Origin: Candidatus Latescibacterota bacterium
Lineage (GTDB): Bacteria > Latescibacterota > UBA2968 > GCA-2709665
DNA: 64,000 bases
Reading direction: 5' to 3'
NCBI GenBank assembly: GCA_965237675.1
Contig: OZ250150.1
Location: forward strand, 5,440,001 to 5,504,000
A model generated the notes under the pieces. The model saw only the letters and a program-made list of their open reading frames with translations, did not search any database and was not told the DNA's origin. The translations under genes and the position numbers were made by a program. Below, one piece after another: positions 39,465-63,640 of the stretch (positions are counted from its first letter, which is position 1; each line of letters opens with the position of its first letter).

Positions 39465-39470
39465 TCTATC

Positions 39471-39560: not shown

Positions 39561-39569
39561 AGCGGCCCG

Positions 39570-39735: not shown

Positions 39736-39749
39736 TATACTTGTTTTCC

Positions 39750-39785
39750 GTTTCAGTCCTTGTTCTGGGGAAGATTCCGAGCGGG
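39750..39785 (-). repeat. Solitary family-2 CRISPR-like repeat
   Basis: gtttcagtccttgttctggggaagattccgagcggg. Confidence 0.85.
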
Positions 39786-39810
39786 ACTGTGGGTTGGGCC
39801 ACGGCCGCTT

Positions 39811-45100: not shown

Positions 45101-45339
45101 ACGTTCAAATTACCCACCGTGTATTGTGTAGAAGATCAGTTACAAGGCCCAGACGAGCCGAGGATAGCGGTTCGAACTATGACCAGCCGGTACGTGTTGG
45201 CCAACGAGGACGTCGGCAAACAGCTATTCGGCACGTCGACACACGCCTCCGCGTCGATAAGAATATACAGAGGAAAACGCGGGATTCAATCCCGACCTGG
45301 AATATTCACTGTTGTTGAACCGAATAATAGTTGAATCTA

Positions 45340-46975: not shown

Positions 46976-47014
46976 CAGGGCAATATGAGCATTCACTGGG
47001 AACCCTACTTAAGC

Positions 47015-47051
47015 GTTTCAATCCTTGTTCTGGTGGAAGACGTTCGACGAT
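47015..47051 (-). repeat. Solitary family-2 CRISPR-like repeat
   Basis: gtttcaatccttgttctggtggaagacgttcgacgat. Confidence 0.9.
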
Positions 47052-47227
47052 TCGGCCGCACGCTCAGCGTCGGCACGGGCCCACAGGGCCAATTTGGACA
47101 GGGTGGGGACAGGCAGGCAGGCCGCCTTGTAGTCAGCAGGTGAGAACGGCGTGCCGTCCTCGTGCCAGGCGGGGCCGTTAAAAGTGTCTGCCATCTTGTT
47201 GGGTTTGTTGGGCGTGTCGATAGTCAT
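47018..47227 (-). CDS. Small WHxDGTPFxPADY protein ending inside the repeat
   Basis: GGAG RBS; 69 aa; uses the TGA of GATTGAAAC as its stop; homolog at 39237-39424. Confidence 0.7.
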   Translation of the reverse strand: MTIDTPNKPNKMADTFNGPAWHEDGTPFSPADYKAACLPVPTLSKLALWARADAERAAESSNVFHQNKD

Positions 47228-47338
47228 CGTTCAGGTCTCCCATATAGTCCCACCGGATATCCCCAACGTGGTCCCCCGGCAGGTTTTCGCGAAAAGCCTC
47301 AATGGACCGCTCGCCACCCGGCAACTTCTGGGCGTCGG

Positions 47339-47375
47339 GTTTCGATCCTTGTTCTGGTGGATCTACATTTGCGGG
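47339..47375 (-). repeat. Solitary family-2 CRISPR-like repeat
   Basis: gtttcgatccttgttctggtggatctacatttgcggg. Confidence 0.85.
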
Positions 47376-47899
47376 CGCTCAGGACCGCCACCACTGTCCC
47401 GATCTGGACAATAACCGCCTTGCAGCACCGCGACCCGGTCCGCGACCGCCAGGGCGTCGCAGACGTCTCGCGCGGCCCAAATCATCGTGCGGCACCGCAG
47501 TTTTGTACGTCGTGCGAAGAGATCGCGCGGATAAATATAGATTCGTGGTGTCGCAATTACTGCGACAAAAAGCAGCTTTCAGCAATCAGCCGACAGCAGT
47601 CAGCCAATAACGAAAAGGCGATCTATTCACGTCAGCGCATTTGGAGTATCTCCAGGGGCATCCCTTTCGGTTGCCCAAGTCGCGTCGAGTAACAGGCCAC
47701 AGGAGGCAATTGGGGGTTCCGTCGGGAGACCCCGCGGGGCGTCATCGTTTTTGTCGATCAGAGGGCATCAGTCGAGATAAGGAAGCGTCGTGTAACCGTA
47801 CGCCCAAATCGCCAACCGGCGGCGCTCGATGATTTTGGCTCTCTTCTCTCGAACCTCCTCATCGAGTAAATAAACGCAGGCAGACACGGGAACTCTATA

Positions 47900-47936
47900 G
47901 AGTAAATCGTTGTTCTGATGGAAGTTCTCATTGGGC
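47900..47936 (-). repeat. Solitary family-2 CRISPR-like repeat (degenerate)
   Basis: gagtaaatcgttgttctgatggaagttctcattgggc. Confidence 0.75.
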
Positions 47937-48174
47937 GAAGAGCCCTTTTGGGACTCGCGCCAGCGTCGGAACTCGTACTGCTTGGTGAAGACCAGCACTT
48001 CGGTTGCCGCCAGCAGGCCGTGCAGGGTCGCATAGAGGCACTCGGAAAAGCGGATCCGAAGGACGCTATGCTACTGATTTTGGCGACTATGTTAAAAACA
48101 ACGCGATCGAATTTCACCCGAGGCAAAAATGTCCAGAGGCAGTACCGGAATTTTTCGCAAACCCCTTGCTGCGT

Positions 48175-49929
48175 CTACGATGTTCCCCGGTCGCTCCGAT
48201 TCGTACTAAGCAGCCCTCGCAGCCTGTGATGCAGACGGTCGCGACGGGCTTCGTAGAACGCGTTGAACCCTGTGATTTCCGTTGGGATCTCACCCAAGTC
48301 ATTTCGAGAGACGAAATCGCTCGCCGCTTCGGAATCATAGGTATTAGCGATCCACTCGTGCGGCAACCTATCGCGCTTGCTTTCGTTGGCCTCCCCGGTG
48401 AGCAACTGCAGATTGGGGAGGCGGTTGACACGGTCGAGGTACTCCGGGATGTGGTCTTCAGCCACTCCGACCTGGCGTAGACGCCCACGCGTGAACCGGC
48501 TCTTCGGAAACACGTGATCGATATGGAACCTGTTGCTTTGCACATCCACGAAGGGGTATAAGACGGACAGTAGCGCGAACGTACGGTCCTTCGACTCCAC
48601 GAGATCCTCTATTTCTTCTTCCTCGAATGCCAGGCTCTTGCCGCGCACCCGCATCCCAGCTTCCAGTTTCGCCGACGGGAATGCCTCTGCGCCATGTGTA
48701 TCGATCAGGCTCCTGAGCGAGGTGAGCAGGGTGTCCAGACCGCTGCCCCAAATCCCTCGCTTGAGCAGTGATCGCAATAGCCAATCTCGGATATCATCTC
48801 GATCCTGGCGGTACAACGATTGAGACAAGAATCCCGTGGGTGTATCCTTGCAATACAGGTAGTGAGCAATGGGCAGAACTGCGTAGTTTGCGCTTAGACT
48901 GGCCTGGGAAAAACCAAACCTTGCCACCAATTCCACGGCTGTGCGTACTGCGCGCGTTATCGGGTCCCAGTTCTCTTCAAGGAGCTTCATGTTGTTCCGA
49001 TTGAAATTGGTCGCCCTGAAACGAACGTTCGCGACCCCTGCAAGCATAAGGCCTGCTTTGAGCAGGAAGTCCTGAGTGAACGCGAAGCCCGTCCCGATGC
49101 GGTTTATTTCGTCCACCGTGCCGTGTATTGCCTCGCGGGCATCCAGTTTCTCCCACTGTGCGGTGGCCATACTCATCAGCATGTCTGAATAGCTCAGCGT
49201 CGTACCACCACTGTTGGTACGGATAAAGATGTCAAGAACCTTGTCTATATTTTGGTCAGGTTCCTCGTAGTGCGCGATAACCGGATCCGTGTGCACAACC
49301 TTTTGTAGCTTCCCTAGGACGTTGCCTGGGCGGCGTTCATTGCCAAGTTGTCTGTTCACGAGAATTTCGTTGAGATCCTGCCACTCCTCAACCTGTAGGA
49401 TCTCGCCAACGGGGTACCAGCAGTGCGTTTCGTCCCGCCGTTCGGCCTCTTCGCTGGTCAGAAATCGAAAATCGTACTGCATGTTTTGCTCGTTCTCCTC
49501 CGCGTCCGCGAGAAGATTCAGGTATAGTTTCCGCTTTGGAAATGCGTCTGGGTTGTTCCACCATAGACGCGGCAGTTTGTAGGCGTAGGTACCCCGTAGC
49601 CCGATGTTCAAACCCGTTAGTCGTTGCTGGCCGTCGAGCACTGCGGTAACTTCATCTCGGGTGAGGGCTCCTATTGGATCGCAATGGGGGTTATCTCTCT
49701 CGTGATAGTTAAGCATTAAGTCGTAGAACTTGTACTTAGCGATGCTCTCTCGTTCGACGATCCAGAACAGGAACGACCCAATCGGGTACCCGCGCATCAG
49801 GCTGTCGAAGAGACATTGGATCTGTTCAGGCCGCCACACGAATTCCCGCTGAATCGCAGGAAGCACATACTGCCTACCTTCAATAGCCCCGAGGGCCTTG
49901 CTGATCGTGATAGGAGTCTGGAATCCCAT
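48175..49929 (-). CDS. DUF262 plus HNH (GmrSD-like) restriction protein
   Basis: LPAIQREFVW, DSLMRGYPIG, LDGQQRLT, IFIRTNSGG, HIDHVFP..NLQLL..N. Confidence 0.9.
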   Translation of the reverse strand: MGFQTPITISKALGAIEGRQYVLPAIQREFVWRPEQIQCLFDSLMRGYPIGSFLFWIVERESIAKYKFYDLMLNYHERDNPHCDPIGALTRDEVTAVLDGQQRLTGLNIGLRGTYAYKLPRLWWNNPDAFPKRKLYLNLLADAEENEQNMQYDFRFLTSEEAERRDETHCWYPVGEILQVEEWQDLNEILVNRQLGNERRPGNVLGKLQKVVHTDPVIAHYEEPDQNIDKVLDIFIRTNSGGTTLSYSDMLMSMATAQWEKLDAREAIHGTVDEINRIGTGFAFTQDFLLKAGLMLAGVANVRFRATNFNRNNMKLLEENWDPITRAVRTAVELVARFGFSQASLSANYAVLPIAHYLYCKDTPTGFLSQSLYRQDRDDIRDWLLRSLLKRGIWGSGLDTLLTSLRSLIDTHGAEAFPSAKLEAGMRVRGKSLAFEEEEIEDLVESKDRTFALLSVLYPFVDVQSNRFHIDHVFPKSRFTRGRLRQVGVAEDHIPEYLDRVNRLPNLQLLTGEANESKRDRLPHEWIANTYDSEAASDFVSRNDLGEIPTEITGFNAFYEARRDRLHHRLRGLLSTNRSDRGTS

Positions 49930-50727
49930 CAGTGAAAACCTCCTTCGAATCGGGTTTACAGCGGCGACAACGGAAAGTGCTAATACACGCACCACCGGTG
50001 GGTACGGGTGCGCCGTCTGGATTCTATGCCATGGACTTTGCGGCTAGGGCCAAAAGCCGGTACCGTGAGCGTTAATCTCCTTCTGGGCCTTGGCGGAGAC
50101 TCTGCGTCGCTTGTACGCGTTTCCTGGTAGCCTCGTAGACCTTCATTCGAAGAAAGCAAGGGGTGCCGAGATTGCTATGGTGCCCGATGTGCCACTGCCT
50201 GCGCCTATGCAGGAACCACATGAATGGATTGACTGTGACCGCCGAGCATTTCTGGGGGTATTCGCACACTCAGGGTTCGCGGTCCAAGTGTATGTTGCCG
50301 CGCAACAGGTGTGGGCTCAACATGCCGATGGACGCGTACGCAGTCGCTTGCACGGTACTGGGTACAGCGGTTGGTGGTACTTGTGGTCCGTCAATTCAGG
50401 GTCAAGATTGATGTTCCAGCGTGCCAGTCCAAAGATGCGCCCGAATAGGCTTTTGAGCCACCGGGTACAGAACGTGGTGCGATGCGAGAGTTGGTGCACC
50501 GCATCTATTGCACAAGTACCTCTCGGTAGATCCGCGACCGTTTCCGGTCCAACTTGACCGAGGTATAGGAGACAAATTCATTCGACTCGACAATATGACA
50601 ACGTGCAGAGCAAACGTCGCCTGATCGTCGGGTTCGTTCACGTTTCGATTCCGGTTCCTGTGGAAAATGCACTGCGGATTGTCGTGCGTACACAACGCAC
50701 CTCGGCCATTCGGTCTCTTGGCGCTGC

Positions 50728-51642
50728 TTAAGCAACCTCGAACAGGTAGCGCACCCACTTGTTTGCGACGTCGGAGATGCCATCCACGTCAATTACGAAT
50801 TCCTGCCCTGGGCCTTCCGAGGTGACATGGATCCACGGCGCGGCGCGCCGCCGCATTTTGACTTTACGCTTAAGGCGCCTGCAACCGTCGGCTGGCCAGA
50901 ACCATTCAGGCAGTCTCCAGTGTGAGCATCGGGATGATGCTCCCTTTTCAACTTCCTCCGGCTCGGTCAAGATGATACGGCAGTCTTCGTTCTGAAATAC
51001 GCCGCCTCCGGGTGCGTCGGTTCCAGCGATACTGAGCTTCGGAGTCGAAACGTAGACCGTGTTGTTCATCGGCCTCCGAGGATTGTCGCCCGGTTCCCGG
51101 AATGATCCGTTCAGATGTGGGTGGTCCGATAGCCACGGATACTTGCCCAGAGCGCGGTCGTAGTCCGCAACTGTATGAAGTGCCAAAACTTCATGTACCT
51201 GAAGCCAACCGAAAATCAGATGGACTCTCGGTGCGGTTCTGACGAAACACCAACCGCCGCTGCCATCTTCCTCGACCCGCCGGAACGTTCCGAAGAACAG
51301 GAAAAGGTCACCCTGACAGACGCCCTGATTGGCCAGGTGGGTTTGAGATTCATCTACCAGTCCGAATGCTGGCCGCCATCCGGATTGCCGTGGGATCGCT
51401 TCGTCTCGAAGGTCTGGATCCAGGTGGCACCAACAGTCTTGCCTAACTTTACTCAGGCACTCCACAATCGGCGCGAGCGAGCGACCAACCCACAGAACAT
51501 CGCTAAACCGTTTCGAAGATTGAGGATAACGCTGGGGCGTCGGAATAGGGAGGGAGAGGATTCTCCCGTCTGGGAAAATCGGGCTATGGCTCTTTCCAGT
51601 TTTCGAGTCGAATCCCTTGCGGCTGAGCACGATTCTCTTCAT
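50728..51642 (-). CDS. Nmad3-like nucleotide-modification-associated protein
   Basis: MKRIVLSRKGFDS..SPIFPDG..SLPIP..CHLDPDL..GDLFLFFG.F..IFGWLQV..HPH..QEFV. Confidence 0.8.
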   Translation of the reverse strand: MKRIVLSRKGFDSKTGKSHSPIFPDGRILSLPIPTPQRYPQSSKRFSDVLWVGRSLAPIVECLSKVRQDCWCHLDPDLRDEAIPRQSGWRPAFGLVDESQTHLANQGVCQGDLFLFFGTFRRVEEDGSGGWCFVRTAPRVHLIFGWLQVHEVLALHTVADYDRALGKYPWLSDHPHLNGSFREPGDNPRRPMNNTVYVSTPKLSIAGTDAPGGGVFQNEDCRIILTEPEEVEKGASSRCSHWRLPEWFWPADGCRRLKRKVKMRRRAAPWIHVTSEGPGQEFVIDVDGISDVANKWVRYLFEVA

Positions 51643-51646
51643 CGGT

Positions 51647-51683
51647 AAAGTCCTCGTTGTTCTGATGGAAAATTCCCTGTCTA
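51647..51683 (-). repeat. Solitary family-2 CRISPR-like repeat (degenerate 3' end)
   Basis: aaagtcctcgttgttctgatggaaaattccctgtcta; ATG of the Nmad3-like gene follows 4 nt downstream. Confidence 0.72.
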
Positions 51684-51785
51684 CAATCTCCTCAAGTCCG
51701 GCGCCTAATGGGCCGGCCGGCACGATTCGACTCGAACCCACAACGTGCATCCGGACAAAGCGGCGGCTTGTCGCGTGAGGTGGAT

Positions 51786-52340
51786 CTAACGCATCTCCAA
51801 CCGTTCGCCGCGCCGAAGCAGCCCGAGGCTCTCGGCGATGCGCCGCTCCCGAGTTGCCTCGCGTTTGGCCGTCCCTATCCACGTGATGAACTGGCGCTGG
51901 TACGAAGGCGCCAGGGTGTTCCAAAAGGCTTGAGCATTGGGATCGGCTTCCAAGGCGGCTGAGAACGCGTGCGCCATCTCGAACCGAGCCGCCTCAGGCT
52001 TCCAACCCCAGGTTCCGCTACGCTTCGCTTCGTCGATCAGGCGCTGGCCGGCGGCCGTCATCTTGCCGGACGCGCGCAGCCGGTCGACGCGCTTACGGTT
52101 CGTTTCCGACCACCGGCTCCCCGGCCTTCTCGGCGTGAAGCGGTGCATGTAGCGCTCGTCGTCGATCCGCTGCTTCGTCCCGTCGATCCAGCCAAAACAC
52201 AGCGCTTCCTCGACCGCGTCGTTGTACGTCGCTGTCGGTTTGTCCACGTGTTTCTTGTAGAACACCACCCAGACCGCGTCGACGCGATCGTGGTTCGCGC
52301 ACAGCCAGCGTCGCCAACAGGACCGGCTTCTCGGGGTGAA
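51786..52340 (-). CDS. YdeI/OmpD-associated family protein, N-terminus unclear
   Basis: WRRWL..NH, AVEEALCFGWIDG, FTPRRPGSRWS.TN, AKREATRERRI. Confidence 0.85.
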   Translation of the reverse strand, partial: FTPRSRSCWRRWLCANHDRVDAVWVVFYKKHVDKPTATYNDAVEEALCFGWIDGTKQRIDDERYMHRFTPRRPGSRWSETNRKRVDRLRASGKMTAAGQRLIDEAKRSGTWGWKPEAARFEMAHAFSAALEADPNAQAFWNTLAPSYQRQFITWIGTAKREATRERRIAESLGLLRRGERLEMR

Positions 52341-52941
52341 GCGCCGCTCCGGCGTGGACCTCGCCGCCTGCCTCGACCTGCCGGGAAGGGAAACATCGAC
52401 TGCTTTCTTGTCCGAATCAGGCATGAGGATCTCCGTTATTCCCATTTGGAAGCGCAACGCTACAGGCACGCGAAGGCCAGCGCGGTAAAGCCACGACCGA
52501 TCGACAGCTGTATGGCGCCGGGATGCCCCACGTATCTGGGCGTCGCTTCAACTCGCTCAGCAACCCCACTGGGCACCAATTCCACCTCTTTGAACTCGAA
52601 CAGTTACACATTGCTGTTGAAGCGTACCGCCATGTCCGGACGACCCGGGTGGCGCAGAAACCCTTTTCACGTCAGCTTACGGAGCCCGTGGACGACATTG
52701 AACGCCGACGGTATATCCGGTAACTGGTCTACCCGCTCCCCAGGGCGTGCCCGGGGAAAATCGCCCGAACCTGCGAGAATCGGTTCAGTAGTGGCACCGC
52801 TGATCGGCGCTGCCCATATCGGTATTAACTATTGGGGCTTGAAACAGATGGACAAAGCTGCAAACATCCGTAGCCTCCACGTCGATGCGTCTCGAAAAAA
52901 CGTAAGCCCCTGCTCACTGGTGAAGACATGGCCTGCCGTGG

Positions 52942-53190
52942 TTAGAAAATGCCTCCGCCGAGCGCAAGGCGTATGATGCCAAAAAACAGCGCCACAATGC
53001 AGCATACTAAGCCCGCGATACCGCAGCTCTTGGAGTTGCTGCCCGCCGTAACCAGCGCGATGCCGCAGACGATGACGCCCAAGCCTGCAAAAGGGATATT
53101 GAGCCAGTTTAGCGAGCCGAGACAAGGAAAAAAGCCCACCACCATTCCAACAATAGCCAGAATTCCCCAAAGCAAACTAAGCACCCGCAT
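52942..53190 (-). CDS. Small membrane protein
   Basis: AGGAGG RBS; FFPCLGSLNWLNIPFA; three hydrophobic segments. Confidence 0.75.
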   Translation of the reverse strand: MRVLSLLWGILAIVGMVVGFFPCLGSLNWLNIPFAGLGVIVCGIALVTAGSNSKSCGIAGLVCCIVALFFGIIRLALGGGIF

Positions 53191-53194
53191 GATG

Positions 53195-53512
53195 TTACCT
53201 CCTTTTGTGCATCCGGCGCATCATGAAAACGGCGACCACTAGCTGATTGGCGAGCAAAGCTCCAAGAATGGCGACCGACCCTCGATTGTAGATAAGAGCT
53301 GCCGAGAAGTCGCCACGTGCAGTGGCCGCGAATGCGCGCGTCATGCCGCACAAAGCGCAGGTTTCCCCGTTGCGATGCGGCACCTTAAGAGCCTCGCTCG
53401 TGGAAAAAAGCGTTTCCTCCGGCACAAGGTAGGGCAAGATCAATATGAAAAGCAGCACAGTTGACGCCACCAACCACGCCGCCAAAAGGGTCCTCCTGGC
53501 ATAGCGGTCCAT
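53195..53512 (-). CDS. DUF2752-like membrane protein
   Basis: CALCGMTRAF..GDF.AA..YN; starts 31 nt after the repeat. Confidence 0.75.
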   Translation of the reverse strand: MDRYARRTLLAAWLVASTVLLFILILPYLVPEETLFSTSEALKVPHRNGETCALCGMTRAFAATARGDFSAALIYNRGSVAILGALLANQLVVAVFMMRRMHKRR

Positions 53513-53543
53513 TGCGTCGGCTCCGTCGTGAAATACGAGGATT

Positions 53544-53580
53544 GTTTCAATCCTTGTTCTGATGGAAGATTCCCGACGGT
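53544..53580 (-). repeat. Solitary family-2 CRISPR-like repeat (best-conserved copy)
   Basis: gtttcaatccttgttctgatggaagattcccgacggt. Confidence 0.9.
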
Positions 53581-53661
53581 GTGTGGAGCGCACGCGAGGC
53601 ACTGCTGTTCTGTGGGGTGCGTCTCATGTACGGTTAAGGCGCGGGGACGCACTATCCGCGG

Positions 53662-54744
53662 TCATGCCAGGTTGGCGACGCGGCGTTCGGCGGCGGCGAT
53701 GTCGGCGGCGCCGTCGAGCACGGTGATCTCCAGGTGGAACTCGCGTGTGGCGCCGGGTTCCAGGTACTCCAGGAAGTCGTGCCTGCGGTTCCAGGCGCGC
53801 CCGAGGGGCGAGCAGTTGCCCGGCTCCACGCCGGTCACGTAGCCGGCGGCGGCGAAGTGCTGCCACTGGGTGACCAGCGGCAGCTCGGCAGCCGGCATGC
53901 GCCACTGCAGGCCGTACGCAAGCCGGTCGTTGATCAACGCAACGGTCACGTTGCCGTTGGCGTCCGGTACCGGCCGGTGCACGTAGACGTCGTCGCCGGC
54001 GCCCGGCTCCGGGGCGCGCGCCCGCTCGTACTCCGCGGCATCGACCGGGCGGTCCTGCAGCCACTCGGTGCTGAACTGGCTGTTGACCACGAACCGGGTA
54101 CCCTCGTCGAGCAGCGGGAAGCCGGGATTGGTGTGGTACAGCAGCATCAACGGCGAGCGCAACCCGCCTAGGTTCTCCACTCGGTCGTGGATGCTGATGC
54201 GGCGCTCGCCCAGCGTAGTGGTGATTTCGCGGCGTAGCTCGAGGGTGGTGCCAAGTGCCACCGCTTCGCGCATGGTGCCGGCGATGCGCAGGCGGTATTG
54301 GTCTCCCTGCCAGCTTCCGCCGGCGCTCACGTCGCGCGCCGGGATGGCGGACAGCCGCCCGTGCAGGCCCAGCTCCTCGCCTTCCTCCTCCGGGTCGGTT
54401 TCGGGATGGCCGACGAAGGTCAGGCCGCAACTGATGAGCAGGCCGCCGAAGAAACTGCGCATCCAGCCGTAACCGCCGGGCTCGAAGAATGCCGGGCCGA
54501 CGTCACCGGTGGCGCTGCGGAAACACAGCGACCGCCCCCGGTAGGTGGCGGCAGCGATGTCGAGCGCCCGTCCGGGCAGCACCGAGAAGCTCAGTCCGGA
54601 GGCGTTGCTCACCTCGATCAATCCGGCGCCGCGCTCGTTGCCCTCGGTCAGCTCGGCGCGGCGAACGGCGGCGAGCTGGCTCATATCGCCGACCAACCGC
54701 AGCAGCTCCGCCTTCGTGTAGTCACGTCCAAACAGATGCGCCAT
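53662..54744 (-). CDS. Aldose 1-epimerase-like (DUF4432) protein
   Basis: GDMSQLA, LPGRALDI, FFGGLL.SCGL, LHGR, LYHTNPGFPLL, YVTGVEP; very GC-rich. Confidence 0.85.
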   Translation of the reverse strand: MAHLFGRDYTKAELLRLVGDMSQLAAVRRAELTEGNERGAGLIEVSNASGLSFSVLPGRALDIAAATYRGRSLCFRSATGDVGPAFFEPGGYGWMRSFFGGLLISCGLTFVGHPETDPEEEGEELGLHGRLSAIPARDVSAGGSWQGDQYRLRIAGTMREAVALGTTLELRREITTTLGERRISIHDRVENLGGLRSPLMLLYHTNPGFPLLDEGTRFVVNSQFSTEWLQDRPVDAAEYERARAPEPGAGDDVYVHRPVPDANGNVTVALINDRLAYGLQWRMPAAELPLVTQWQHFAAAGYVTGVEPGNCSPLGRAWNRRHDFLEYLEPGATREFHLEITVLDGAADIAAAERRVANLA

Positions 54745-54856
54745 GCTCGCTCTCTCCTCTCGTGGACGGGCGGCGCCCGGTCAGCGGTCGTGCCAGCGGG
54801 TGTTGCTGCCGGTGCCGCCGGTGAGGCCGATCACCCGCCCCATGATCGCCGCGCCG

Positions 54857-55002
54857 TTACGCCGGGTGCCTCGCCGGGGCAACGTGAGCGCGGCCGATCT
54901 GTCCTACCGAGGTACAGCCGATGAGCGCCATGGTGCGGCTCATCTCCTCGGCCAGCAGGCTTACCGCGTAGTCGACCCCCGCTTCGCCGCCGTTGCCAGA
55001 CT
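54857..55002 (-). pseudogene. C-terminal fragment of an FMN-dependent alpha-hydroxy-acid oxidase, cut at the array repeat
   Basis: GNGGEAGVDYAVSLLAEEMSRTMALIGC begins immediately after ATTGAAAC of the last array repeat. Confidence 0.75.
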
Positions 55003-57672
55003 GTTTCAATCCGCTCCCCCCACCGAAGTGAGGGGAGATGTCATCTCGGGCGCGTGCGCGAAGTCCTTCCACGAGTTTCAATCCGCTCCCCCCACCGAAG
55101 TGAGGGGAGATATTCAGGATGTTTCCGCGTCTATCGTTCCGTCTCCGGTTTCAATCCGCTCCCCCCACCGAAGTGAGGGGAGATATGGACGAAGAAGTCA
55201 TACACTACGACTCCCGGATAGGTTTCAATCCGCTCCCCCCACCGAAGTGAGGGGAGATTTTTATGATGGACTGGATAGACGCCGAAAGAAACAGTTTCAA
55301 TCCGCTCCCCCCACCGAAGTGAGGGGAGATCTGTATCCGTGCGCCTCATCGCCCTCGACCTCTCACAAGTTTCAATCCGCTCCCCCCACCGAAGTGAGGG
55401 GAGATCAGCGCGGGTATGCCTTCCTCGCGCACGACATCCAAAGTTTCAATCCGCTCCCCCCACCGAAGTGAGGGGAGATGAATCTGACGGGTATCGTACC
55501 CGCCGTCCCACTCGAGTTTCAATCCGCTCCCCCCACCGAAGTGAGGGGAGATCCTTCGCGTATGACGAGGGCCTTGATCCTTTCATGAGACAGTTTCAAT
55601 CCGCTCCCCCCACCGAAGTGAGGGGAGATCGCTTGCTCGGTGGCTGAGAGTTGCGATACTTACGTGTTTCAATCCGCTCCCCCCACCGAAGTGAGGGGAG
55701 ATCTCCCAGGCGGCACAATGGCGGTTAGTGGGAACCAGGTTTCAATCCGCTCCCCCCACCGAAGTGAGGGGAGATCGCCGGGCGGCGACCTGTGGGAAGC
55801 GTCGGGGATGGTCGTTTCAATCCGCTCCCCCCACCGAAGTGAGGGGAGATGCCGTGGGCGTTTTCATTCCGGGAAAGGCTGACATGTTTCAATCCGCTCC
55901 CCCCACCGAAGTGAGGGGAGATCAGGGGCCGCTTGCCGGGGTTACCATCAAGGATCCGCGTTTCAATCCGCTCCCCCCACCGAAGTGAGGGGAGATCTCT
56001 GTCGGGCATGGCGAAAAGAACCAACAAAAGCAAGTTTCAATCCGCTCCCCCCACCGAAGTGAGGGGAGATATCCTTATCTCGCGCCGGCACTGTTGGGTA
56101 CGACGAGTTTCAATCCGCTCCCCCCACCGAAGTGAGGGGAGATTTAAACCGGGGCCACAATACAGGAGGGTAAATAATGGTTTCAATCCGCTCCCCCCAC
56201 CGAAGTGAGGGGAGATGTCGGCCGGAATTCTTGCCGAACACGATAGCGCAGTTTCAATCCGCTCCCCCCACCGAAGTGAGGGGAGATTAATGCCTGATTT
56301 TACTGGCGAACAAAAGAAAAAGTTTCAATCCGCTCCCCCCACCGAAGTGAGGGGAGATGGGCGCACAGATCGCCTCTGAGCGTTCCTTTTGTGGTTTCAA
56401 TCCGCTCCCCCCACCGAAGTGAGGGGAGATTCCTGTCTTCATCCGTGAATACATATCCTTCAGGCATGTTTCAATCCGCTCCCCCCACCGAAGTGAGGGG
56501 AGATCTACGATGCGGTATCGGATGTCGGTGCCTGCAATGTTTCAATCCGCTCCCCCCACCGAAGTGAGGGGAGATAGACAGCGGGTGGGCATTGACGACT
56601 GACGCGATAGGTTTCAATCCGCTCCCCCCACCGAAGTGAGGGGAGATTTGTCTGCCGGACGCGGCGCAATGCCGTCGCCATAAGTTTCAATCCGCTCCCC
56701 CCACCGAAGTGAGGGGAGATCCCGAAATGCAAGGGTGGTGGGACAAGTGCACTCAGGACGTTTCAATCCGCTCCCCCCACCGAAGTGAGGGGAGATGCGC
56801 GATGACGCCAAGACAAAAGTCATTCACAATGTTTCAATCCGCTCCCCCCACCGAAGTGAGGGGAGATTCGTAACCGTGCACGAACTGCTCAAAAGCGTCG
56901 ATGGTTTCAATCCGCTCCCCCCACCGAAGTGAGGGGAGATCCACGCCCCGCGCGGGTTCGCGCAACTCGTAGGAATGTTTCAATCCGCTCCCCCCACCGA
57001 AGTGAGGGGAGATTGCCTGTCTCCTCTTGAATCAGTGACGCGCTCAGGTTTCAATCCGCTCCCCCCACCGAAGTGAGGGGAGATTCATTTTCGTGCCTAC
57101 CTGCACAGCGAAAGACACGGTGTTTCAATCCGCTCCCCCCACCGAAGTGAGGGGAGATTCCCCGACCCCTCCCCTCCCACGGCCGTTCCTCCACGTTTCA
57201 ATCCGCTCCCCCCACCGAAGTGAGGGGAGATCAGGTTGCTCGACAAGGCCGTCCCAGGGGCTACGTGTTTCAATCCGCTCCCCCCACCGAAGTGAGGGGA
57301 GATGTGTCGCCTGTGGCCCTGGGGGTTTTGACCCGTACAGGTTTCAATCCGCTCCCCCCACCGAAGTGAGGGGAGATCCGTGGTGTCCTGGGCCTTGCCC
57401 TGGGTCTATACTGGTTTCAATCCGCTCCCCCCACCGAAGTGAGGGGAGATGTGCCGTCGCGGGCGTACGTCACCTCGGAACCAAAGGTTTCAATCCGCTC
57501 CCCCCACCGAAGTGAGGGGAGATCCAGGGGCGTCCGTGGGAGAGGCGGGTGGTGGGTCCGGGTTTCAATCCGCTCCCCCCACCGAAGTGAGGGGAGATGT
57601 ACGTGGTCGCGGCGGCTTACGCCGCGCTGGGTACGGTTTCAATCCGCTCCCCCCACCGAAGTGAGGGGAGAT
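55003..57672 (-). CRISPR. Type I-C CRISPR array, 37 repeats and 36 spacers
   Basis: 37-nt repeat ATCTCCCCTCACTTCGGTGGGGGGAGCGGATTGAAAC (minus strand); spacers of about 34-40 bp; counted by eye. Confidence 0.98.
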
Positions 57673-57852
57673 GCTGGTTGCTACAACCAGCAGAATACCA
57701 AAGGTTTACACAGGCGGATGCGCGATTCCATCGAATCGGTAACAAACAATCCTGAATTCAACATCGATGAGCCCTCCAACCTGTTATTAAACAAAAGGTT
57801 TCGCAACCCGCGAAACCCCAGGCAAAATTCCGTCACTCTACGTTCGCGCAAC
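57673..57852 (-). promoter_or_regulatory. CRISPR leader
   Basis: Lower-GC noncoding segment between cas2 and the first repeat. Confidence 0.75.
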
Positions 57853-58140
57853 CTATAAAACCAGCGGACCCGATAGGTCCACGGGTTTACTGATACCGTG
57901 ATGCTCTGTCTCCTTTCCGGTGTCTTCGTCCAGGTGATAGATTCGAAGGGAGTCTTGCTCATGATCGATTTCCTTTAACAAACGATTTCGGAGCACGGCC
58001 CATTCCGTTTTTCCGACCTTACATTCAAACAGCGACTTTTGTACTCGTACGCCGAAATCCTCACAGGCTCTTGCGACGCGCCGCAGTCGCTTTTGTCCAG
58101 CCCGGTCAATCGTCGAGACGTCGTACGCGATCAGTTTCAA
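57853..58140 (-). CDS. cas2: CRISPR-associated Cas2
   Basis: IAYDVST..RLRRVARAC..GVRVQKSLFEC..DSLRIY; probable TTG start at 58140 within a repeat-like sequence. Confidence 0.93.
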   Translation of the reverse strand: MKLIAYDVSTIDRAGQKRLRRVARACEDFGVRVQKSLFECKVGKTEWAVLRNRLLKEIDHEQDSLRIYHLDEDTGKETEHHGISKPVDLSGPLVL

Positions 58141-58176
58141 TCCGCTCTCCTGCAATAGAACAGGTGAAATCCTACT

Positions 58177-59238
58177 TCATTTGGGTATGTACGGGATATA
58201 GTCGGGAATATCGCCACGGAGCTTTCGCGCCAGCAACCTGGCTTGAATGCTGAACACCTGCCCTAAACGGATATTTTCCTTGAACAGCGCGTGCTTTACC
58301 TCGGTTTGCTTCCGGCGTTGCCAGGCCTGGATAACCTCTTTCCTGCCCCGGTCGGTAAACTCCACTGCGCCGCCTTCGCGCTCGAGGAAGTGTCCAGGTT
58401 CAATCTGGCGACGATTGATCAGGGTCAATGCCAGCCGCTCAGCCAAACAGGGTCGGAACTCTTCCATCAGATCCAGCGCACAAGCCGGCCTACCAGCCCT
58501 TGTGGCATGGAGCCAGCCGACGTACGGGTCCAGCCCAGCGGTCGTCAACGCGGCCAAACAGTCGTGCCGCACCAGTGCGTAGATGAAGGAAAGCAGGCAG
58601 TTTACCCGGTCACGGGGCGGACGCCGCGAGCGCGTAATAAATCTGAAGTCTTCCCGCTGTTGTTTAAGCATGTACTGGAAGGCCGAGAAATATTTCCTGG
58701 CGCCCAGACCTTCCATACCCCTGATCGGATCGAGTGCCTCCCGAAGCCCGCAATTCGTTGCAACGGGTGGAGCATTGCCGAGTTGATCGATCAGCCGGGC
58801 TAATTCATCTGCGGCACCCACCAACTCCCTGCGGTCCGAATCCGTCTCGGCTTCGCGGCCGGACCGCAATAGATTGGAACGCGAATTCTGCAGCTTTCCG
58901 GCGACGAACTGCCGGGCAATGCGAGCAGCAACCTCCGGGCTGTCCGCCGCCGCGTATTGAGCCCGGCGGAGCAGATACCGGGTGTCTCCGCTTCCCAGAA
59001 CCTGCGCCAGCAGATGTCCGTTCTCGGTATGGTAATGGACGGCAACCTGATGCTGCCAGCACAGGGACATTGCAGGTGGCGTAACCACGACCCGACCGAA
59101 CGCGCAGATACTTTCCAGGTGATGAATCGGCACGGTCAATCGTGTTTGTTTTTCGATTTCGACCCGGAGCGTCAAATGATCCCTGTGGACAACAGTGCCC
59201 GGAGTCGTCAGATACAGGGTGTTCTGGATGATAGCCAT
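58177..59238 (-). CDS. cas1: CRISPR-associated Cas1 (type I-C)
   Basis: NTLYLTT, RGMEG.GA..YF, RSRRPPRD.VN.LLSF.Y, GLDPY.G.LH, ALDLMEEFR. Confidence 0.97.
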   Translation of the reverse strand: MAIIQNTLYLTTPGTVVHRDHLTLRVEIEKQTRLTVPIHHLESICAFGRVVVTPPAMSLCWQHQVAVHYHTENGHLLAQVLGSGDTRYLLRRAQYAAADSPEVAARIARQFVAGKLQNSRSNLLRSGREAETDSDRRELVGAADELARLIDQLGNAPPVATNCGLREALDPIRGMEGLGARKYFSAFQYMLKQQREDFRFITRSRRPPRDRVNCLLSFIYALVRHDCLAALTTAGLDPYVGWLHATRAGRPACALDLMEEFRPCLAERLALTLINRRQIEPGHFLEREGGAVEFTDRGRKEVIQAWQRRKQTEVKHALFKENIRLGQVFSIQARLLARKLRGDIPDYIPYIPK

Positions 59239-59281
59239 AACAGGTCCGTAAGCCAGGTTTGGCCTGTGGAACCAGGCAAAT

Positions 59282-59983
59282 TTAGTCTGAGGTGTCGAAC
59301 ACCTCCCGGCCGGCTTGAAGAAGGATGGGCGGAGCGCTGGTTATTTCGGGAAGGCAGTAATGAAAAAGCGAGCACTCCGAACATTGTGGCTTATGGACGG
59401 CTTGGGGGACCACTTCCTCTTCGATAAGCCGATGCACGGCTTCGATGGCGTGTTCTGTGAGTCGGCGCAGATCGCCGTCAAACTCAACTTCTCGCCGGCG
59501 CCTGCTCGTGGCGTGGTAGATAGCCCCTCGGGGAATCTCCAATTCGAACATTTCTTCGAGGCACAACGCTTGTGCGCAAAGCTGGGCGTCATCGTTGTCG
59601 AACTTGCGGCGTTTGCCCTTCTTATATTCAACTGGATAGACGCTTTCGACATTATCCGGCAAATATCGGGTTTTTTTTCGCTTAGAAGAACGTTTGAGTT
59701 TCACCTCAACAATATCGCATTTTCCAGAGAGCCCCAGCCTTTGGGACCATACCGGCAATGCCCGAAGCACTTCTGTATGTGCCGCCTTCTCGTACCCTGG
59801 TACATCGGCCTGCTCGTGAAATTGACTGCCGATTAGCGTGTGCTCGTTTTCGGTGAAAGTACCCTCGACATGGATCAAGCCCGCCCGCCGAGGGCAATAG
59901 AGGTACTGGTTGATAGCGGAGAGCGGAATGATCCGCTCTCCGCTATCGTACGGGTGGATCGGCTGGAAAACGGATTCATTCAT
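59282..59983 (-). CDS. cas4: CRISPR-associated Cas4
   Basis: YCPR, G..DIVE, PVEYKKG, QLCAQALCLEEM, C..CSL..C. Confidence 0.96.
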   Translation of the reverse strand: MNESVFQPIHPYDSGERIIPLSAINQYLYCPRRAGLIHVEGTFTENEHTLIGSQFHEQADVPGYEKAAHTEVLRALPVWSQRLGLSGKCDIVEVKLKRSSKRKKTRYLPDNVESVYPVEYKKGKRRKFDNDDAQLCAQALCLEEMFELEIPRGAIYHATSRRRREVEFDGDLRRLTEHAIEAVHRLIEEEVVPQAVHKPQCSECSLFHYCLPEITSAPPILLQAGREVFDTSD

Positions 59984-60929
59984 GACGCCTATTTAAGCAA
60001 ATGCCGGCGGGCAGATCGACACTGTCCCATCCGCAGCCAACCTCATAATCGGCGAAGGATTGCGGGAATTCCACGCTGTCCTTCAGTTTTACCTCTATTC
60101 CCTCAAAAAGCTTGTGGGCATGGGCACAGCCGAGGCGGGCTTCGCGTTTTTTTTGTTCGGCATTATTTTCATGTTGGGTGCCAACGTGCTCAAAGTCGTA
60201 AATCCCTCGCACCACCATTTCACCGCGAGCAGCGGAGCGGTCATGCTCGAACATCTGGTTGAGCGCATCGAAGAGGACATCGAGGTCGGCGTTAGTGAAC
60301 CCGGTGCGTTCGGCAAAAGCAGGCGAGACGTAAACCTTGGCGGCGAAGAGGGCATAGGGTACGATGTGCTTATTGCCCATGGTGCGTTCCTTGTCTGCGT
60401 CCTCCTCTTTTGTGACGGCACCGCGAGTAATGGAGATCTCCAGTGGCGTGATAGGATGGTACGACTGGCCAAAGGTGAACTGCACCGGACCGCGCACCTG
60501 ACCCCAAGCGGAGCCTTTCATGATGCTTTCCCCTACGCCGAGTACACCGCCGAACGCACGCACATCAAAGAACTCACGGCACAGCCATTTCATGGCAGCT
60601 TCTTGCTTCTCGTTCTTGGAAGCACCCGAGTCCAAACTCTCGGCACTTTTCTCAACGCCATTGTCGATCTCGTTATTGATTATGGCACCCTGCCTTATCA
60701 ACAGATTATAGCCGTTGGCATCATCTTCAGCCCGTTCGGGCGAGAACATTTCAACGAAGTTGCGCACCTTACGCTTGAGGCACACGTCGGAGACGAGACC
60801 CCGATTGGTGTTGTGATCTTGACGCGGCATGTTACCAGCATCGGGATCGCCATTGGGATTTCCGTTGGTGACCTCGAAGAGCAGCAAAACGTCGTGCCGA
60901 TTGGTGAGAATATCGTTGTTTCGATTCAT
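59976..60929 (-). CDS. cas7: Cas7c (Csd2)
   Basis: NGNPNGDPDAGNMPR, DVCLKRKVRN, FFDVRAFG, GPVQ, MFEHDRSAARG. Confidence 0.96.
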   Translation of the reverse strand: MNRNNDILTNRHDVLLLFEVTNGNPNGDPDAGNMPRQDHNTNRGLVSDVCLKRKVRNFVEMFSPERAEDDANGYNLLIRQGAIINNEIDNGVEKSAESLDSGASKNEKQEAAMKWLCREFFDVRAFGGVLGVGESIMKGSAWGQVRGPVQFTFGQSYHPITPLEISITRGAVTKEEDADKERTMGNKHIVPYALFAAKVYVSPAFAERTGFTNADLDVLFDALNQMFEHDRSAARGEMVVRGIYDFEHVGTQHENNAEQKKREARLGCAHAHKLFEGIEVKLKDSVEFPQSFADYEVGCGWDSVDLPAGICLNRRHE

Positions 60930-60954
60930 TGATGAATTCCTTTCTGTGAAAGAT

Positions 60955-62802
60955 TTATTGGTTGCTTTCCTTTTTTTCTTGTGCTGCCTCGCGGGCGACG
61001 CGGTCGGCGGCTTTTTGCTGGTAAAAACCGAGGGCGAAACGCCCCTGCGCGTGCAAATCCAACGTACGGGGGAATGGGTAGATTTTGGTTGACACTTCTT
61101 GAATAGCCTCGTCCAAGAAGCGGTCATGTCCTTTGTACTTATCGGACTTGCGGATATTGTTGAGATGGTGGCGGTTGAGCTTGAGGAGGACCGGAAACAC
61201 CGAGGCTGGCGAGGCCATGGCAGTACCAAAATAACGCTCGGCGACTCCGGCTCCTTCGAGCTGATAATCATGTGCCTTGGCTTGGGCCTCGGTGAGCACA
61301 GCGAGCAACCGTCCGCATTGATAGGCGGCATCTTCCGCCTTTGCGTCCTGTTGTTCAGTAATTTCCATGGTGTTTCCCTTTCGGTTTCGATTGAGAACGA
61401 GCTTTGCCAAGGCTAACCGGGAATGGTTCAACAATGCCGTGCTTCCATCGCGTGCCATATCAACGCGCAGGCGGTTCAACAGGGGATGCAAAAGAGCAAG
61501 TGAGGGCGCGGTCCCTTCCAGCGCGGCGCGAAATAACTGAGCGGTCACTTCCGTCTGCAAATCTTTTGCGTCGCGTACTGTAGTGCAAGCCAGTCGGAAC
61601 AGGGCTAATGGCGGCATCTTTTCTTTGCCAGTGGGCAGGCGCACCGGCTCCAGATCGAGATCGCGGAACCAGCGCCGCAGATTTTCCGTGGCGGTTTCCA
61701 GCGTCGTTTGCATCCAGTGGCGCACAACGATGCGGCCACTATTGCCCGCGAGAGTGACGGCATGGAACTGCTCCTGCCGCATTGCATCGCGTTCCTGTCC
61801 GACCCACGGGGACTTCAAAAAATGCGCCACTGCCATGGGATCGGCTTGGTTGAGTAAAACACCCCAATCGCTGGTGGCGTCCGTTTCATTCCGAGTCCAA
61901 AAACAGCATGATGCCTGCCCTAAGCGGATGGAATGATCTTTGCGGCCAAGCATCGCGTTGAGCGCGGTGCAATAGGCGGTGGCCGCCCGGGTGGAGGTGG
62001 AAGCATTTAGACTTTGCTCAAAACCGTAGGAGGCGAAGGCATCCTTATCAAACGAGACAATCGACGCGCCGAAGGCTTGGGTGTTGGGCACGCCTTGGAC
62101 TTTGGGGTTGTGGGTCATCGCAATAGGCTGATCGCTCTCCCCGGTGACCAAACAGAGTCCGTGGGGCGCATCCGCCTCGTGGTCTTCATTTTCCTTCTCG
62201 AATTGATTCCGCCAAAAGGGCCGGATGTGAATTTCATCCTCCAGAAGCAATTGCTCCTCCACGCGGAATGAAAAGTTGTCCGGCCCTAGTTTAACCTCTC
62301 CGCCATCGGCTTTGGTGATCCACCAAGCAGGTTTCTCCTTGGGCTTGGCGTCAGAACTGATACCCCAGCGCATAAAGGACAGCATCTGTCCCGGTTCGGG
62401 CTTGAACGCCAACAGGGTCTTGAGCGTCAGACTGAGTGTGTGCTCCTGCGCCTTTTCAATCTGCGCCCAAAAGTCATTGTACTTACGCAAATTGTTCTCA
62501 TTACGGTCCTTCCGCTTCTTTTCGGACATAGGTTGTTCCGGGTTCGCGTCAAATCCGAACACGGCCGTAATGCCATCCGCCATGAACTCGGCCACCCCGC
62601 CAGCCACCTTGGGCCGAGTTGTCTTTGGACAATCGAACTCCTTGCCTCGGTTCCTTTCCCCCTCGGTTTCCACCGGCCCTTGGCCCACGAGATTGCCCAT
62701 CGTGTCCAAAGTAACGATCCATCGCACTGCCTTTGGTTTGAAAGCTAGGTTATTCAGCAGTTTTCGAGATTTCGCGAAATCGTTCAAATGTTGCAGCAGC
62801 AT
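60955..62802 (-). CDS. cas8c: Cas8c (Csd1)
   Basis: CLVTG, IVSFDKDAF.SYG..Q, NSGRIVVR.W, AYQCGRLLAVL, QGRFALGFYQQ. Confidence 0.95.
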   Translation of the reverse strand: MLLQHLNDFAKSRKLLNNLAFKPKAVRWIVTLDTMGNLVGQGPVETEGERNRGKEFDCPKTTRPKVAGGVAEFMADGITAVFGFDANPEQPMSEKKRKDRNENNLRKYNDFWAQIEKAQEHTLSLTLKTLLAFKPEPGQMLSFMRWGISSDAKPKEKPAWWITKADGGEVKLGPDNFSFRVEEQLLLEDEIHIRPFWRNQFEKENEDHEADAPHGLCLVTGESDQPIAMTHNPKVQGVPNTQAFGASIVSFDKDAFASYGFEQSLNASTSTRAATAYCTALNAMLGRKDHSIRLGQASCCFWTRNETDATSDWGVLLNQADPMAVAHFLKSPWVGQERDAMRQEQFHAVTLAGNSGRIVVRHWMQTTLETATENLRRWFRDLDLEPVRLPTGKEKMPPLALFRLACTTVRDAKDLQTEVTAQLFRAALEGTAPSLALLHPLLNRLRVDMARDGSTALLNHSRLALAKLVLNRNRKGNTMEITEQQDAKAEDAAYQCGRLLAVLTEAQAKAHDYQLEGAGVAERYFGTAMASPASVFPVLLKLNRHHLNNIRKSDKYKGHDRFLDEAIQEVSTKIYPFPRTLDLHAQGRFALGFYQQKAADRVAREAAQEKKESNQ

Positions 62803-62804
62803 TA

Positions 62805-63602
62805 TCAAATCCCTTTTGGTTCGAGAATTTCAACTTCGTCGGGATGACAAACCAAGGTGGAATCCTTCATCTTGGCGCGGAAGAAACAGGCTTCGGGTCG
62901 AGCCAATTCGCCGACAAAACGTGCGGTATTCTTCTTGGGTCCCAGTTCATCGGGGCGTTTCCAGCGAAAGCCCTGAGCACGTGCCGTGGGCGGAAAAACA
63001 TCATAGAGCATCAAGCCCAAGTCCTCCACGGGCTGTCGCCAACTGATGCCCAGCTCAGTAGCTCGCCCTTCCAGCGCGGCCTGGGGATCATCAACCCACT
63101 CGAAATCCGCCGCGAATTCACGCATACCCAAGGCGGGCCGGTGGAAGCACTTGCCCTGCTGAGCGCGGCGCTTGAACTCGACGAAATACTTCACCGGTGT
63201 GTCGTTCGGGCGATTCGCCAACGGTGTGGTACGCAGTTCGGCACTGATGATGTATTCCACCTCTTGGAGAGCCAACATATTGCGCTGAGTGCCGTCAGGT
63301 GCGCCGCCCCCAGCCTCAATGGGCGATACCTTCTCCGGCTGAGCCATCCATTGGCCGACATTGCGCAGGCTGATGACTGACTGCACTTCATTGCGCCGAA
63401 TCGAGGCCCAGCGTCCTCGCCGAACCACCCGGACGACAGCGACGCAATAACAAACTTGAGGTTCCCAAAACACGGCTTCCAAAATGCCACGTGCGGCAGA
63501 GGGCGTCATCACCGAATAGCTGACGCGCTCCACTTTCATTTCGGGGCGAGTGAAACAAGCCCAATCGCCCCATACTCTGAGATGTACATGATTGTTTTTC
63601 AT
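62805..63602 (-). CDS. cas5c: Cas5c (Cas5d)
   Basis: VWGDWACFTRPEMKVERVSY..TPSAARGILEA, GKCFHRP.LG.REF, DLGLMLYD. Confidence 0.96.
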   Translation of the reverse strand: MKNNHVHLRVWGDWACFTRPEMKVERVSYSVMTPSAARGILEAVFWEPQVCYCVAVVRVVRRGRWASIRRNEVQSVISLRNVGQWMAQPEKVSPIEAGGGAPDGTQRNMLALQEVEYIISAELRTTPLANRPNDTPVKYFVEFKRRAQQGKCFHRPALGMREFAADFEWVDDPQAALEGRATELGISWRQPVEDLGLMLYDVFPPTARAQGFRWKRPDELGPKKNTARFVGELARPEACFFRAKMKDSTLVCHPDEVEILEPKGI

Positions 63603-63640
63603 GTTTCAATCCATTCCTCATACTGATGGAAAGGGGAAAC
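63603..63640 (-). repeat. Repeat-derived sequence directly abutting the cas5c ATG
   Basis: Minus strand TTTCCATCAGTATGAGGAATGGATTGAAAC|ATG; resembles family 2 with a short insertion. Confidence 0.65.

Follow-up and report, generated by a model that had tools for sequence, protein, structure and literature searches.

How does a piece of a foreign metabolic operon come to lie between the repeats of a bacterial immune array? The question is raised by the window analysed here, a stretch of 64,000 nucleotides (nt) covering positions 5,440,001 to 5,504,000 of a 5.6-Mb contig from a Candidatus Latescibacterota bacterium, whose genome has a guanine-plus-cytosine (GC) content of 58.2%. In this window, the repeats of a type I-C CRISPR array (repeat family F1) are followed by a segment that carries the cut end of an oxidase gene and a complete DUF4432 gene, and that stops at a repeat of a second, 35-nt family (F2). 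An earlier note, made from the sequence alone, had taken this segment for a giant spacer, captured from another organism and joined to the base at the last repeat of the array. We found that the DNA is foreign and that it is shared with other members of the genus, and the whole is best explained, in our judgement and with somewhat better than even confidence, as a horizontally acquired gene cassette rather than an immune spacer.

Foreign origin of the segment and its sharing among congeners

Read from the array outwards, the segment and its borders are made up as follows:

55003–57672, minus strand: F1 array of 37 identical 37-nt repeats and 36 spacers (repeat search)
54992–55002, minus strand: 11 nt after the last F1 repeat (AGTCTGGCAAC), without homology to relatives or donor in the alignment
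54857–54991, minus strand: 3' end of a gene for a flavin mononucleotide-dependent alpha-hydroxy-acid oxidase (PF01070); the frame is open from 55000 and its stop is at 54857–54859
54782–54844, minus strand: 20-codon remnant in which the start of coaE is fused to the end of a cupin gene (comparison with the donor-type operon)
53662–54744, minus strand: intact DUF4432 (aldose-1-epimerase-like) gene, 360 aa, 88% GC at third codon positions (Pfam, tree, ratio of nonsynonymous to synonymous substitution rates, dN/dS)
53579–53661, minus strand: 3' tail of 83 nt (alignment of copies)
53544–53578, minus strand: solitary F2 repeat of 35 nt (minus-strand sequence CGTCGGGAATCTTCCATCAGAACAAGGATTGAAAC); the family is type I-B-like

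Between our own repeat boundaries the segment runs from 53579 to 55002 and is 1424 nt long; it does end at an F2 repeat, as the earlier note had it, while the extent given there (1422 nt, from 53581) needs correcting. Its GC content of 69.8%, compared with 58.2 ± 3.8% for 3935 genome windows of the same size (0.03% of which are as high), bears out the impression that it is GC-richer than its surroundings, and it is single-copy in the genome. The only domains found in it are FMN_dh and DUF4432. The oxidase frame, 47 codons and a stop (54857–55000), matches only positions 312–349 of the 350 in the PF01070 FMN_dh profile (E = 2.5e-8) and is a gene fragment rather than a complete TIM-barrel FMN_dh domain, in agreement with the earlier observation that the sequence beyond the last F1 repeat starts mid-gene in the end of an oxidase. 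When the 5.6 Mb were searched with the FMN_dh profile, the remainder of the oxidase gene was absent from the whole genome and not only, as had been noted, from the window; the four matches were this fragment and three in other large proteins, which cover only positions ~208–312. The DUF4432 gene recognized earlier is indeed complete, matching positions 2–304 of the 304 in PF14486 (E = 1.2e-90; 303.8 bits against a cut-off of 32.5). The remnant that separates the two genes consists of the first ~16 codons of coaE and the last ~7 codons of the cupin gene; compared with the donor-type operon, ~970 bp have dropped out between the two.

The other DUF4432 gene of the genome (C1:2,098,852–2,099,799; 59.6% GC) encodes a protein with 31% identity to that of the segment. 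In a maximum-likelihood tree of 21 proteins, the array-embedded DUF4432 copies and the homologue from a Spirochaetia metagenome-assembled genome (MAG), G005, form a clade with support of 100/100, three more Spirochaetota sequences adjoin that clade (94/90), and homologues from other Latescibacterota genera and families, which are 61–65% identical, are set apart. The 20 kb around the operon in G005 are uniformly ~70% GC, and the operon itself is intact, with genes for FMN_dh (406 aa), CoaE, Cupin_2 and, as the last gene, DUF4432. The intact oxidase–DUF4432 operon that the earlier note had proposed to seek in a donor is thereby found, at 92–93% nucleotide identity (oxidase tail 92.9%, DUF4432 91.8%), in a genome that is donor-like and provides the closest native context, the actual donor not being in hand. 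A donor-like organism is also present in the source community, as a contig of run X1 extends from position 54992 into a native oxidase gene. Among metagenome contigs, a degenerate 27-nt pattern from the end of DUF4432 retrieved one locus (L075), which holds a copy of the type seen in congeners and no donor. Taken together, the GC content, the tree, the donor-type operon and the divergence from the resident DUF4432 gene show that this DNA is foreign, and a transfer from a GC-rich, Spirochaetia-like donor to this lineage is well supported.

We searched 14 other genomes of the same genus (g1) and 16 genomes outside it; the public records of four g1 MAGs carry the label Candidatus Latescibacterota. 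Copies of the cassette at 93–97% nucleotide identity are present in 4 of the 14 g1 genomes (G008, G012, G013 and G017), with two copies in G013 (G013a and G013b) and one full and one partial copy in G017 (G017a and G017b), and the remaining 10 have none at this level of identity. Outside the genus, nine genomes have matches at 64–73% nucleotide identity and seven have none, and a 2.7-kb contig binned as Tectimicrobiota (L008) has the same arrangement as the cassette. The window and G017a have the internal deletion in common, and the window, G017a and G013a have the same 3' junction, in which ...CGCTCCACACAC (...CACACAC) is followed by a complete F2 repeat. The first 22 nt of the 83-nt tail are common to all copies, and its remainder occurs only in these same three. 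Since the cassette is common to congeners, we regard it as inherited or old and not as a freshly captured giant spacer. Of the proposal that a foreign piece was captured by this array at its last repeat, the foreign origin stands and the capture does not.

All six full-length DUF4432 copies are intact and dN/dS lies between 0.085 and 0.183 in all 15 pairs, so the gene is kept by purifying selection in its new hosts. The segment is also 31–42 times as long as any of the 174 spacers that we measured in five arrays (34–46 nt, with no intermediate sizes), which places it outside the spacer range of its systems; a stretch of this length that holds a selected gene is not well described as a giant spacer. 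The cassette and the array are co-oriented, and no terminator-like site was found on that strand from the array to the end of DUF4432, so the gene would probably be expressed by read-through from the array. Contigs of one RNA library span the greater part of DUF4432 and, in a related arrangement, extend across the F2 repeat; because DNA carry-over is possible, we did not count them as expression.

Junctions and probable recombination around the cassette

In the copies G017a, G017b, G013a and G013b, GGCGCCGGCGG... begins immediately after a complete F2 repeat (with the end ...AAGGATTGAAAC or one very like it), and from its first base on the sequence is exactly that of the donor-like oxidase. 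In the window, AGTCTGGCAAC stands between the F1 repeat and GGCGGCGAAGC..., such that homology begins ~11 nt in, and this F1|AGTCTGGCAAC junction occurs in 1 of the 15 g1 genomes, the present one. The cut at the F1 repeat, which had been described as base-precise, is thus not precise to the base. In G008 and G012, a degraded F2-like relic and 18 other bases are followed by a shorter cassette without the oxidase tail. Altogether the cassette gene has five different 5' joins (F2|GGCGCC..., F1|AGTCTGGCAAC... and the degraded relic plus 18 nt among them). The repeats on the two sides of G017a and G013a are both F2, with exact boundaries, and differ from each other at 3 or more positions; in the window, one flank is F1, followed by AGTCTGGCAAC, and the opposite flank is F2. 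G017 has a 55-codon gene, an F2 repeat and the segment, in this order, after its last F1 repeat, which we read as the state before a deletion. Because AGTCTGGCAAC matches neither the relatives nor the donor, the F1 junction of the window is probably a secondary deletion, and AGTCTGGCAAC is probably the start of an old spacer that this deletion left behind.

Beyond the cassette lies a trailer of genes and repeat relics, in which the gene order varies by species and breaks at the relics. In G017, the F1 array is followed by a small gene, an F2 repeat, a partial segment (to DUF4432 codon 193) and a 76-repeat F2 array, and beyond this array come a small gene, an F2 repeat, the full segment, another F2 repeat, a 36-nt spacer and an F1-like repeat; where the partial gene joins the first repeat of the F2 array, the sequences are alike at 8 of 10 nt, as read by eye. 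In G008 and G012, Nmad3 is directly followed by DUF4432 and then by the gene for a 183-aa protein, genes that are several kb apart in the window. The window (38715–38806), G017 and G013 have hybrid stretches in which spacers of normal size separate F1 from F2 repeats. These signatures fit recombination at repeats or a few bases after them, in which the exchanged unit would be an insert with its downstream repeat. Identity between the window and G017 is 95–98% over the cassette and over the end of the trailer that bears relics (38.3–40.7 kb), 77–78% over the blocks between these two, ~80% over the cas genes and 84–92% over the flanking genes; since the cassette and the trailer end exceed the cas and flanking genes in identity, exchange between species is suggested.

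A history that would account for these data starts with a high-GC operon fragment (oxidase–coaE–cupin–DUF4432) that landed in the CRISPR trailer between solitary F2 repeats and lost the ~970 bp internally, unless the true donor was already without them. The segment and its downstream F2 repeat would then have acted like a spacer–repeat unit, being moved, duplicated and truncated and acquiring new neighbours in each species. In this genome, a deletion may have joined an F1 repeat and ~11 nt (the probable spacer start) to about base 7 of the cassette, taking away the small gene and F2 repeat that stand ahead of the cassette in G017 and leaving a cut that looks exact.

Several points weigh against this history. 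The full spacer that would be expected to hold AGTCTGGCAAC was found in no g1 genome, and neither an empty site nor an allele from before the insertion was found. The repeat-exact precision of the copies in two congeners, where donor-homologous DNA starts with the very first base after a complete F2 repeat (four copies), is not predicted by unguided illegitimate recombination, nor is that of the segment end, which in three copies coincides with the base at which a complete F2 repeat begins; as the 3' flank of the donor is not in hand, the 3' junction of the cassette is not judgeable to the base. The six bases ahead of the fragment in G005, GGATTG, equal repeat bases –10 to –5, and the proposed history leaves this match unexplained. 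Read-through into DUF4432, finally, is argued from orientation and a terminator scan. With regard to the GGATTG match, a second donor-like sequence, from a metagenome, has GGTTTG at the same place, and a simple microhomology join at GGATTG was ruled out because the product retains the full repeat end AAAC. The TTG ahead of the fragment in G005 is similar to the TTC/TTN motifs of type I-C and I-G systems, a likeness that would speak for insertion by an adaptation complex, considered below. Protospacers for the 174 spacers were sought in the genome itself (viral collections were not searched) and only chance matches of 17–21 nt were obtained, so no protospacer adjacent motif can be derived.

Other routes into the trailer and comparison with known systems

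The repeat-exact junctions could be the work of an adaptation complex, if Cas1–Cas2 (with Cas4) of an F2 system had inserted a kilobase foreign fragment at a repeat and recombination had followed later. This would suit the four copies in two genomes that begin, and the three that end, exactly at a complete F2 repeat, as well as the arbitrary, mid-gene cut of the fragment. However, the insert of 1424 nt would have measured at least ~2.4 kb before its internal deletion unless the donor already lacked that part, whereas the measured spacers are all of ordinary length; the flanking repeats differ and are of a solitary variant associated with small genes that is the consensus of no array; the other long units between repeats are whole co-oriented genes, many of which start at most ~40 nt after the repeat; and the missing donor 3' flank bears on this route as well, which we consider unlikely. 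The least unlikely of the alternatives is that a plasmid or virus with Racr-type F2-like units recombined into a former type I-B array, DUF4432 being its cargo and the trailer its remnant. The cargo of the trailer, of a kind typical for mobile or defence DNA (a ParA-like ATPase, Nmad3, GmrSD, an MTES_1575 nuclease-helicase, MazEF, insertion sequence (IS) elements and rve fragments), would be in keeping with such an element, as would small conserved open reading frames (ORFs) that each have an F2-like repeat within 0–10 nt downstream. The latter arrangement resembles the published acr-racr operon, where acr is separated by 11 nt from the repeat unit downstream of it (Camara-Wilpert et al., 2023, PMC10651486, where Faure et al., 2019, is cited), and passages of PMC10651486 and PMC8616872 suggest that solitary repeat units of mobile elements may permit integration into arrays. 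Like Racr units, the solitary F2 repeats match the CRISPR family of a congener and follow small ORFs that end 0–10 nt before them. Unlike Racr units, they form part of the chromosome, sit in the trailer of their host's own array and show conservation across the genus (small-gene/repeat units in 12 of the 14 other genomes); viral contigs, searched without plasmid collections, yielded neither the small protein nor the 24-nt F2 core, and with no type I-B cas genes retrieved from this genome by two queries they do not have the profile of virus- or plasmid-encoded, Cas-binding RNAs. An element would, moreover, only relocate to itself the question of why an oxidase fragment abuts a repeat.

A misassembly at CRISPR repeats, with a contig from a GC-rich organism wrongly joined in, is very improbable. 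The donor-like organism in the source community and a CheckM-type contamination of 8% could be cited for it, and none of the contigs listed in the contig sets of four public runs bridges the join at 55002/55003, which is carried by the 5.6-Mb contig only. Yet the cassette also lies in a CRISPR trailer in four further assemblies made independently, and in two of these it has a complete F2 repeat on either side; a 370-nt contig without errors, from a public run, covers 53400–53699 and with it the join of F2 repeat and segment; the window is part of a 5.6-Mb contig; and contamination of 4–10% is listed for all 14 other genus members. We give practically no credence to the converse idea, in which the segment is native and the CRISPR-cas locus was inserted into a resident oxidase gene. 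The truncated gene itself and nothing else speaks for it, whereas no N-terminal part of FMN_dh exists anywhere in the genome, the GC content is extreme for the genome, the phylogeny is foreign and the segment is absent from 10 of the 14 other genus genomes. The earlier note had named an oxidase 5' part beyond the cas operon as one observation that would overturn its reading; because the 5.6-Mb genome contains no such part, that objection falls away.

The reading that we prefer, a foreign gene cassette exchanged together with its downstream repeat, has partial parallels among known systems. Passages of Kupczok et al. (2015, PMC4524480) describe spacers of 100 nt or more as mostly transposon insertions, and the segment resembles these in being kilobase-sized non-spacer sequence between array repeats; real IS insertions also occur here, in the G008 array and at 45439–46785 of the window. 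In contrast to them, the segment has no terminal inverted repeats at its ends, no transposase and no target duplication, and it consists of part of a metabolic operon, including a gene under selection, is bounded by repeats and interrupts neither a repeat nor a spacer. Recombination between CRISPR arrays is likewise documented in passages of that study (Kupczok et al., 2015, PMC4524480). The shuffling of spacer–repeat units is paralleled here by inserts that, with their downstream repeat, have varied neighbours and are duplicated or truncated, and by the hybrid F1/F2 arrays; the units here are genes of 0.2–3 kb, as opposed to 35-nt spacers, and two repeat families that share their last 10 nt are involved. 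Integron cassettes are similar in that closely packed, co-oriented ORFs with a short recurring separator lie in variable order downstream of a promoter-bearing element, but the separator here is an unstructured CRISPR repeat instead of an attC hairpin, and no tyrosine recombinase was found among the 18 window ORFs scanned. The product of a Cas1-family integrase is an insert flanked by direct repeats of the target. By analogy, the segment may be likened to a casposon integrated with direct target repeats around a kilobase insert, but it has neither cas1 nor terminal inverted repeats. Word searches limited to open-access text turned up no published case in which a non-transposon gene fragment lies between CRISPR repeats.

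A broader proposal, which we think quite unlikely, is that such trailers serve as an integron-like platform for gene capture. The repeats would act as recombination sites, Cas1–Cas2 or repeat-directed recombination would capture and shuffle promoterless genes transcribed from the array, the AAGGATTGAAAC repeat end would serve as a ribosome-binding region for the gene beginning a few bases downstream, and the oxidase–DUF4432 fragment would be an arbitrary foreign capture exact to the repeat. Long inserts in CRISPR arrays have so far been attributed to damage by transposons. In the present case, part of a foreign metabolic operon that is not mobile lies between repeats, is under selection and appears to be shuffled between species with its repeat. 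This suggests that ordinary genes can use array trailers, with their wealth of short and near-identical repeats, as landing and exchange sites. If the adaptation integrase made the repeat-exact junction of the relatives, this would be a natural case of Cas1–Cas2 inserting kilobase DNA, with a bearing on the proposal that CRISPR adaptation arose from casposons.

The F2 family, the trailer and the cas operon

G008 has an F2 array placed directly after a cas operon whose Cas7 (Csh2) and Cas5 (Cas5h) are type I-B-like and which continues with cas3, cas1, cas2 and cas4; F2 is the repeat family of the type I-B-like system in that congener. In G017, the 76-repeat F2 array is downstream of the F1 array. 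The F2 repeat at 53544–53578 of the window is a solitary repeat whose 24-nt 3' part is identical to the array repeats of G017 and G008. The genome has a single cas1, the putative cas6 of G008 has no match in it, and two queries retrieved no type I-B cas genes. All F2 copies of the genome are solitary and variably degraded, and they lie at 34.8–53.6 kb of the window apart from a relic upstream of cas5d. As no type I-B cas genes were found and all copies are solitary or degraded, the F2 copies in this genome are relics.

The F2 repeat is unstructured (–2 kcal/mol, z +1.6). The F1 repeat, whose 3' end on the transcribed (minus) strand is ATTGAAAC, folds into a 10-bp hairpin (–19.1 kcal/mol) followed by an 11-nt tail (...CGGAUUGAAAC), and the two families have only their last 10 nt in common. 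Rfam gave CRISPR-DR matches below threshold only. That GGATTGAAAC is a common leader motif of this genome was ruled out, as its 8 and 12 occurrences per strand outside the locus, against 5.3 expected, are at chance level. Stronger constraint on solitary F2 repeats than on their flanks was also ruled out (26 of 35 positions identical in an orthologous pair, flanks 86%). The F2 array of G008 (L037/L038, G008:C5) is broken by insertions into blocks of 26, 4 and 7 repeats, with a gap of ~5.5 kb that contains IS21-type and DDE transposase genes and one of ~1.6 kb that contains an rve-integrase gene.

The trailer and, on the other side of the F1 array, the leader and the cas operon (57853–63602) are made up as follows; the cas genes were assigned with Pfam and NCBIfam:

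38715–53543, minus strand: array trailer with degraded F2 repeats (repeat search, Pfam)
51657–51677, 50642–50676, 47905–47926, 47339–47361 and 47015–47049, minus strand: degraded F2 repeats in the trailer
39750–39783, 39428–39462, 39199–39233 and 38775–38806, minus strand: further degraded F2 repeats in the trailer
45439–46785, plus strand: IS transposase gene in the trailer
57673–57852, minus strand: putative leader, 180 nt from cas2 to the first repeat, placed by position
57853–58155, minus strand: cas2 of the type I-C operon
58177–59238, minus strand: cas1 of the type I-C operon
59282–59983, minus strand: cas4 of the type I-C operon
59976–61331, minus strand: cas7 of the type I-C operon
60955–62808, minus strand: cas8c of the type I-C operon
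62805–63602, minus strand: cas5d of the type I-C operon

The co-oriented genes of the trailer encode DUF2752, OmdA, Nmad3, GmrSD, HYDIN-like, 183-aa and 107-aa proteins and small proteins that we refer to as 'WHxDGTP'. The 'WHxDGTP' family comprises proteins of 55–70 aa with the core W-H-x-D-G-T-P-(F/Y)...D-Y...A-G-(L/M)-P-V-P-T...Q-L-A-x-W-A. Its genes are found at 47018–47227 and 39240–39426 of the window (both on the minus strand), at loci L041–L070 and altogether in 12 of the 14 other genus genomes, often as tandem units of ~220–245 bp. In such a unit the start codon lies 1–19 nt after an F2-like repeat and the stop codon 0–10 nt before the next repeat, so these units are, in effect, protein-coding 'spacers'. 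The protein belongs to no Pfam or PHROG family and has no Atlas neighbour, and its AlphaFold model is helical with a predicted local distance difference test score (pLDDT) of only 68.8. The viral contig collection (plasmid collections were not searched) contains no relative of it and no exact match to the 24-nt F2 core.

At the far end of the trailer (38715–38806), half an F1 repeat (20 nt, 38715–38734) is followed by a 37-nt spacer and a degraded F2 repeat. A GTG-initiated ORF begins right after the F2 relic at 50642–50676. The OmdA/YdeI-like gene (51786–52469, minus strand) lies in a second local GC peak of ~66% and may be another foreign cassette. Beyond the trailer there are a MazE/MazF pair (37631–38244, plus strand) and a truncated gene for an ATP-binding cassette (ABC)-transporter ATPase (36802–37344, minus strand); the latter probably shows where the locus as a whole was first inserted. 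Segments of 80–110 nt are duplicated between the trailer and the DNA just outside it at 85–87% identity (34653–34761/39570–39678, 36735–36817/47415–47497 and 37320–37398/47606–47684), which hints at further rearrangements.

With cas3, cas5d, cas8c, cas7, cas4, cas1 and cas2 and an array whose repeat has a hairpin and an 11-nt tail, the host locus is of type I-C; 37 F1 repeats were observed where 0 are expected by chance. Past the end of the window, cas3, an IS256-type transposase gene and a WYL regulator gene are found upstream of cas5d. The transposase gene, of the Mutator family (G000:C1:5503904–5505193), separates cas3 from cas5d, and the WYL/WCX regulator gene is farther upstream than the transposase gene. 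An F2-like element (63603–63631, minus strand) ends 1 base ahead of the cas5d ATG, and a 17-nt F1-like 3' end (GGAGAGCGGATTGAAAC; 58134–58150, minus strand) overlaps the start of cas2.

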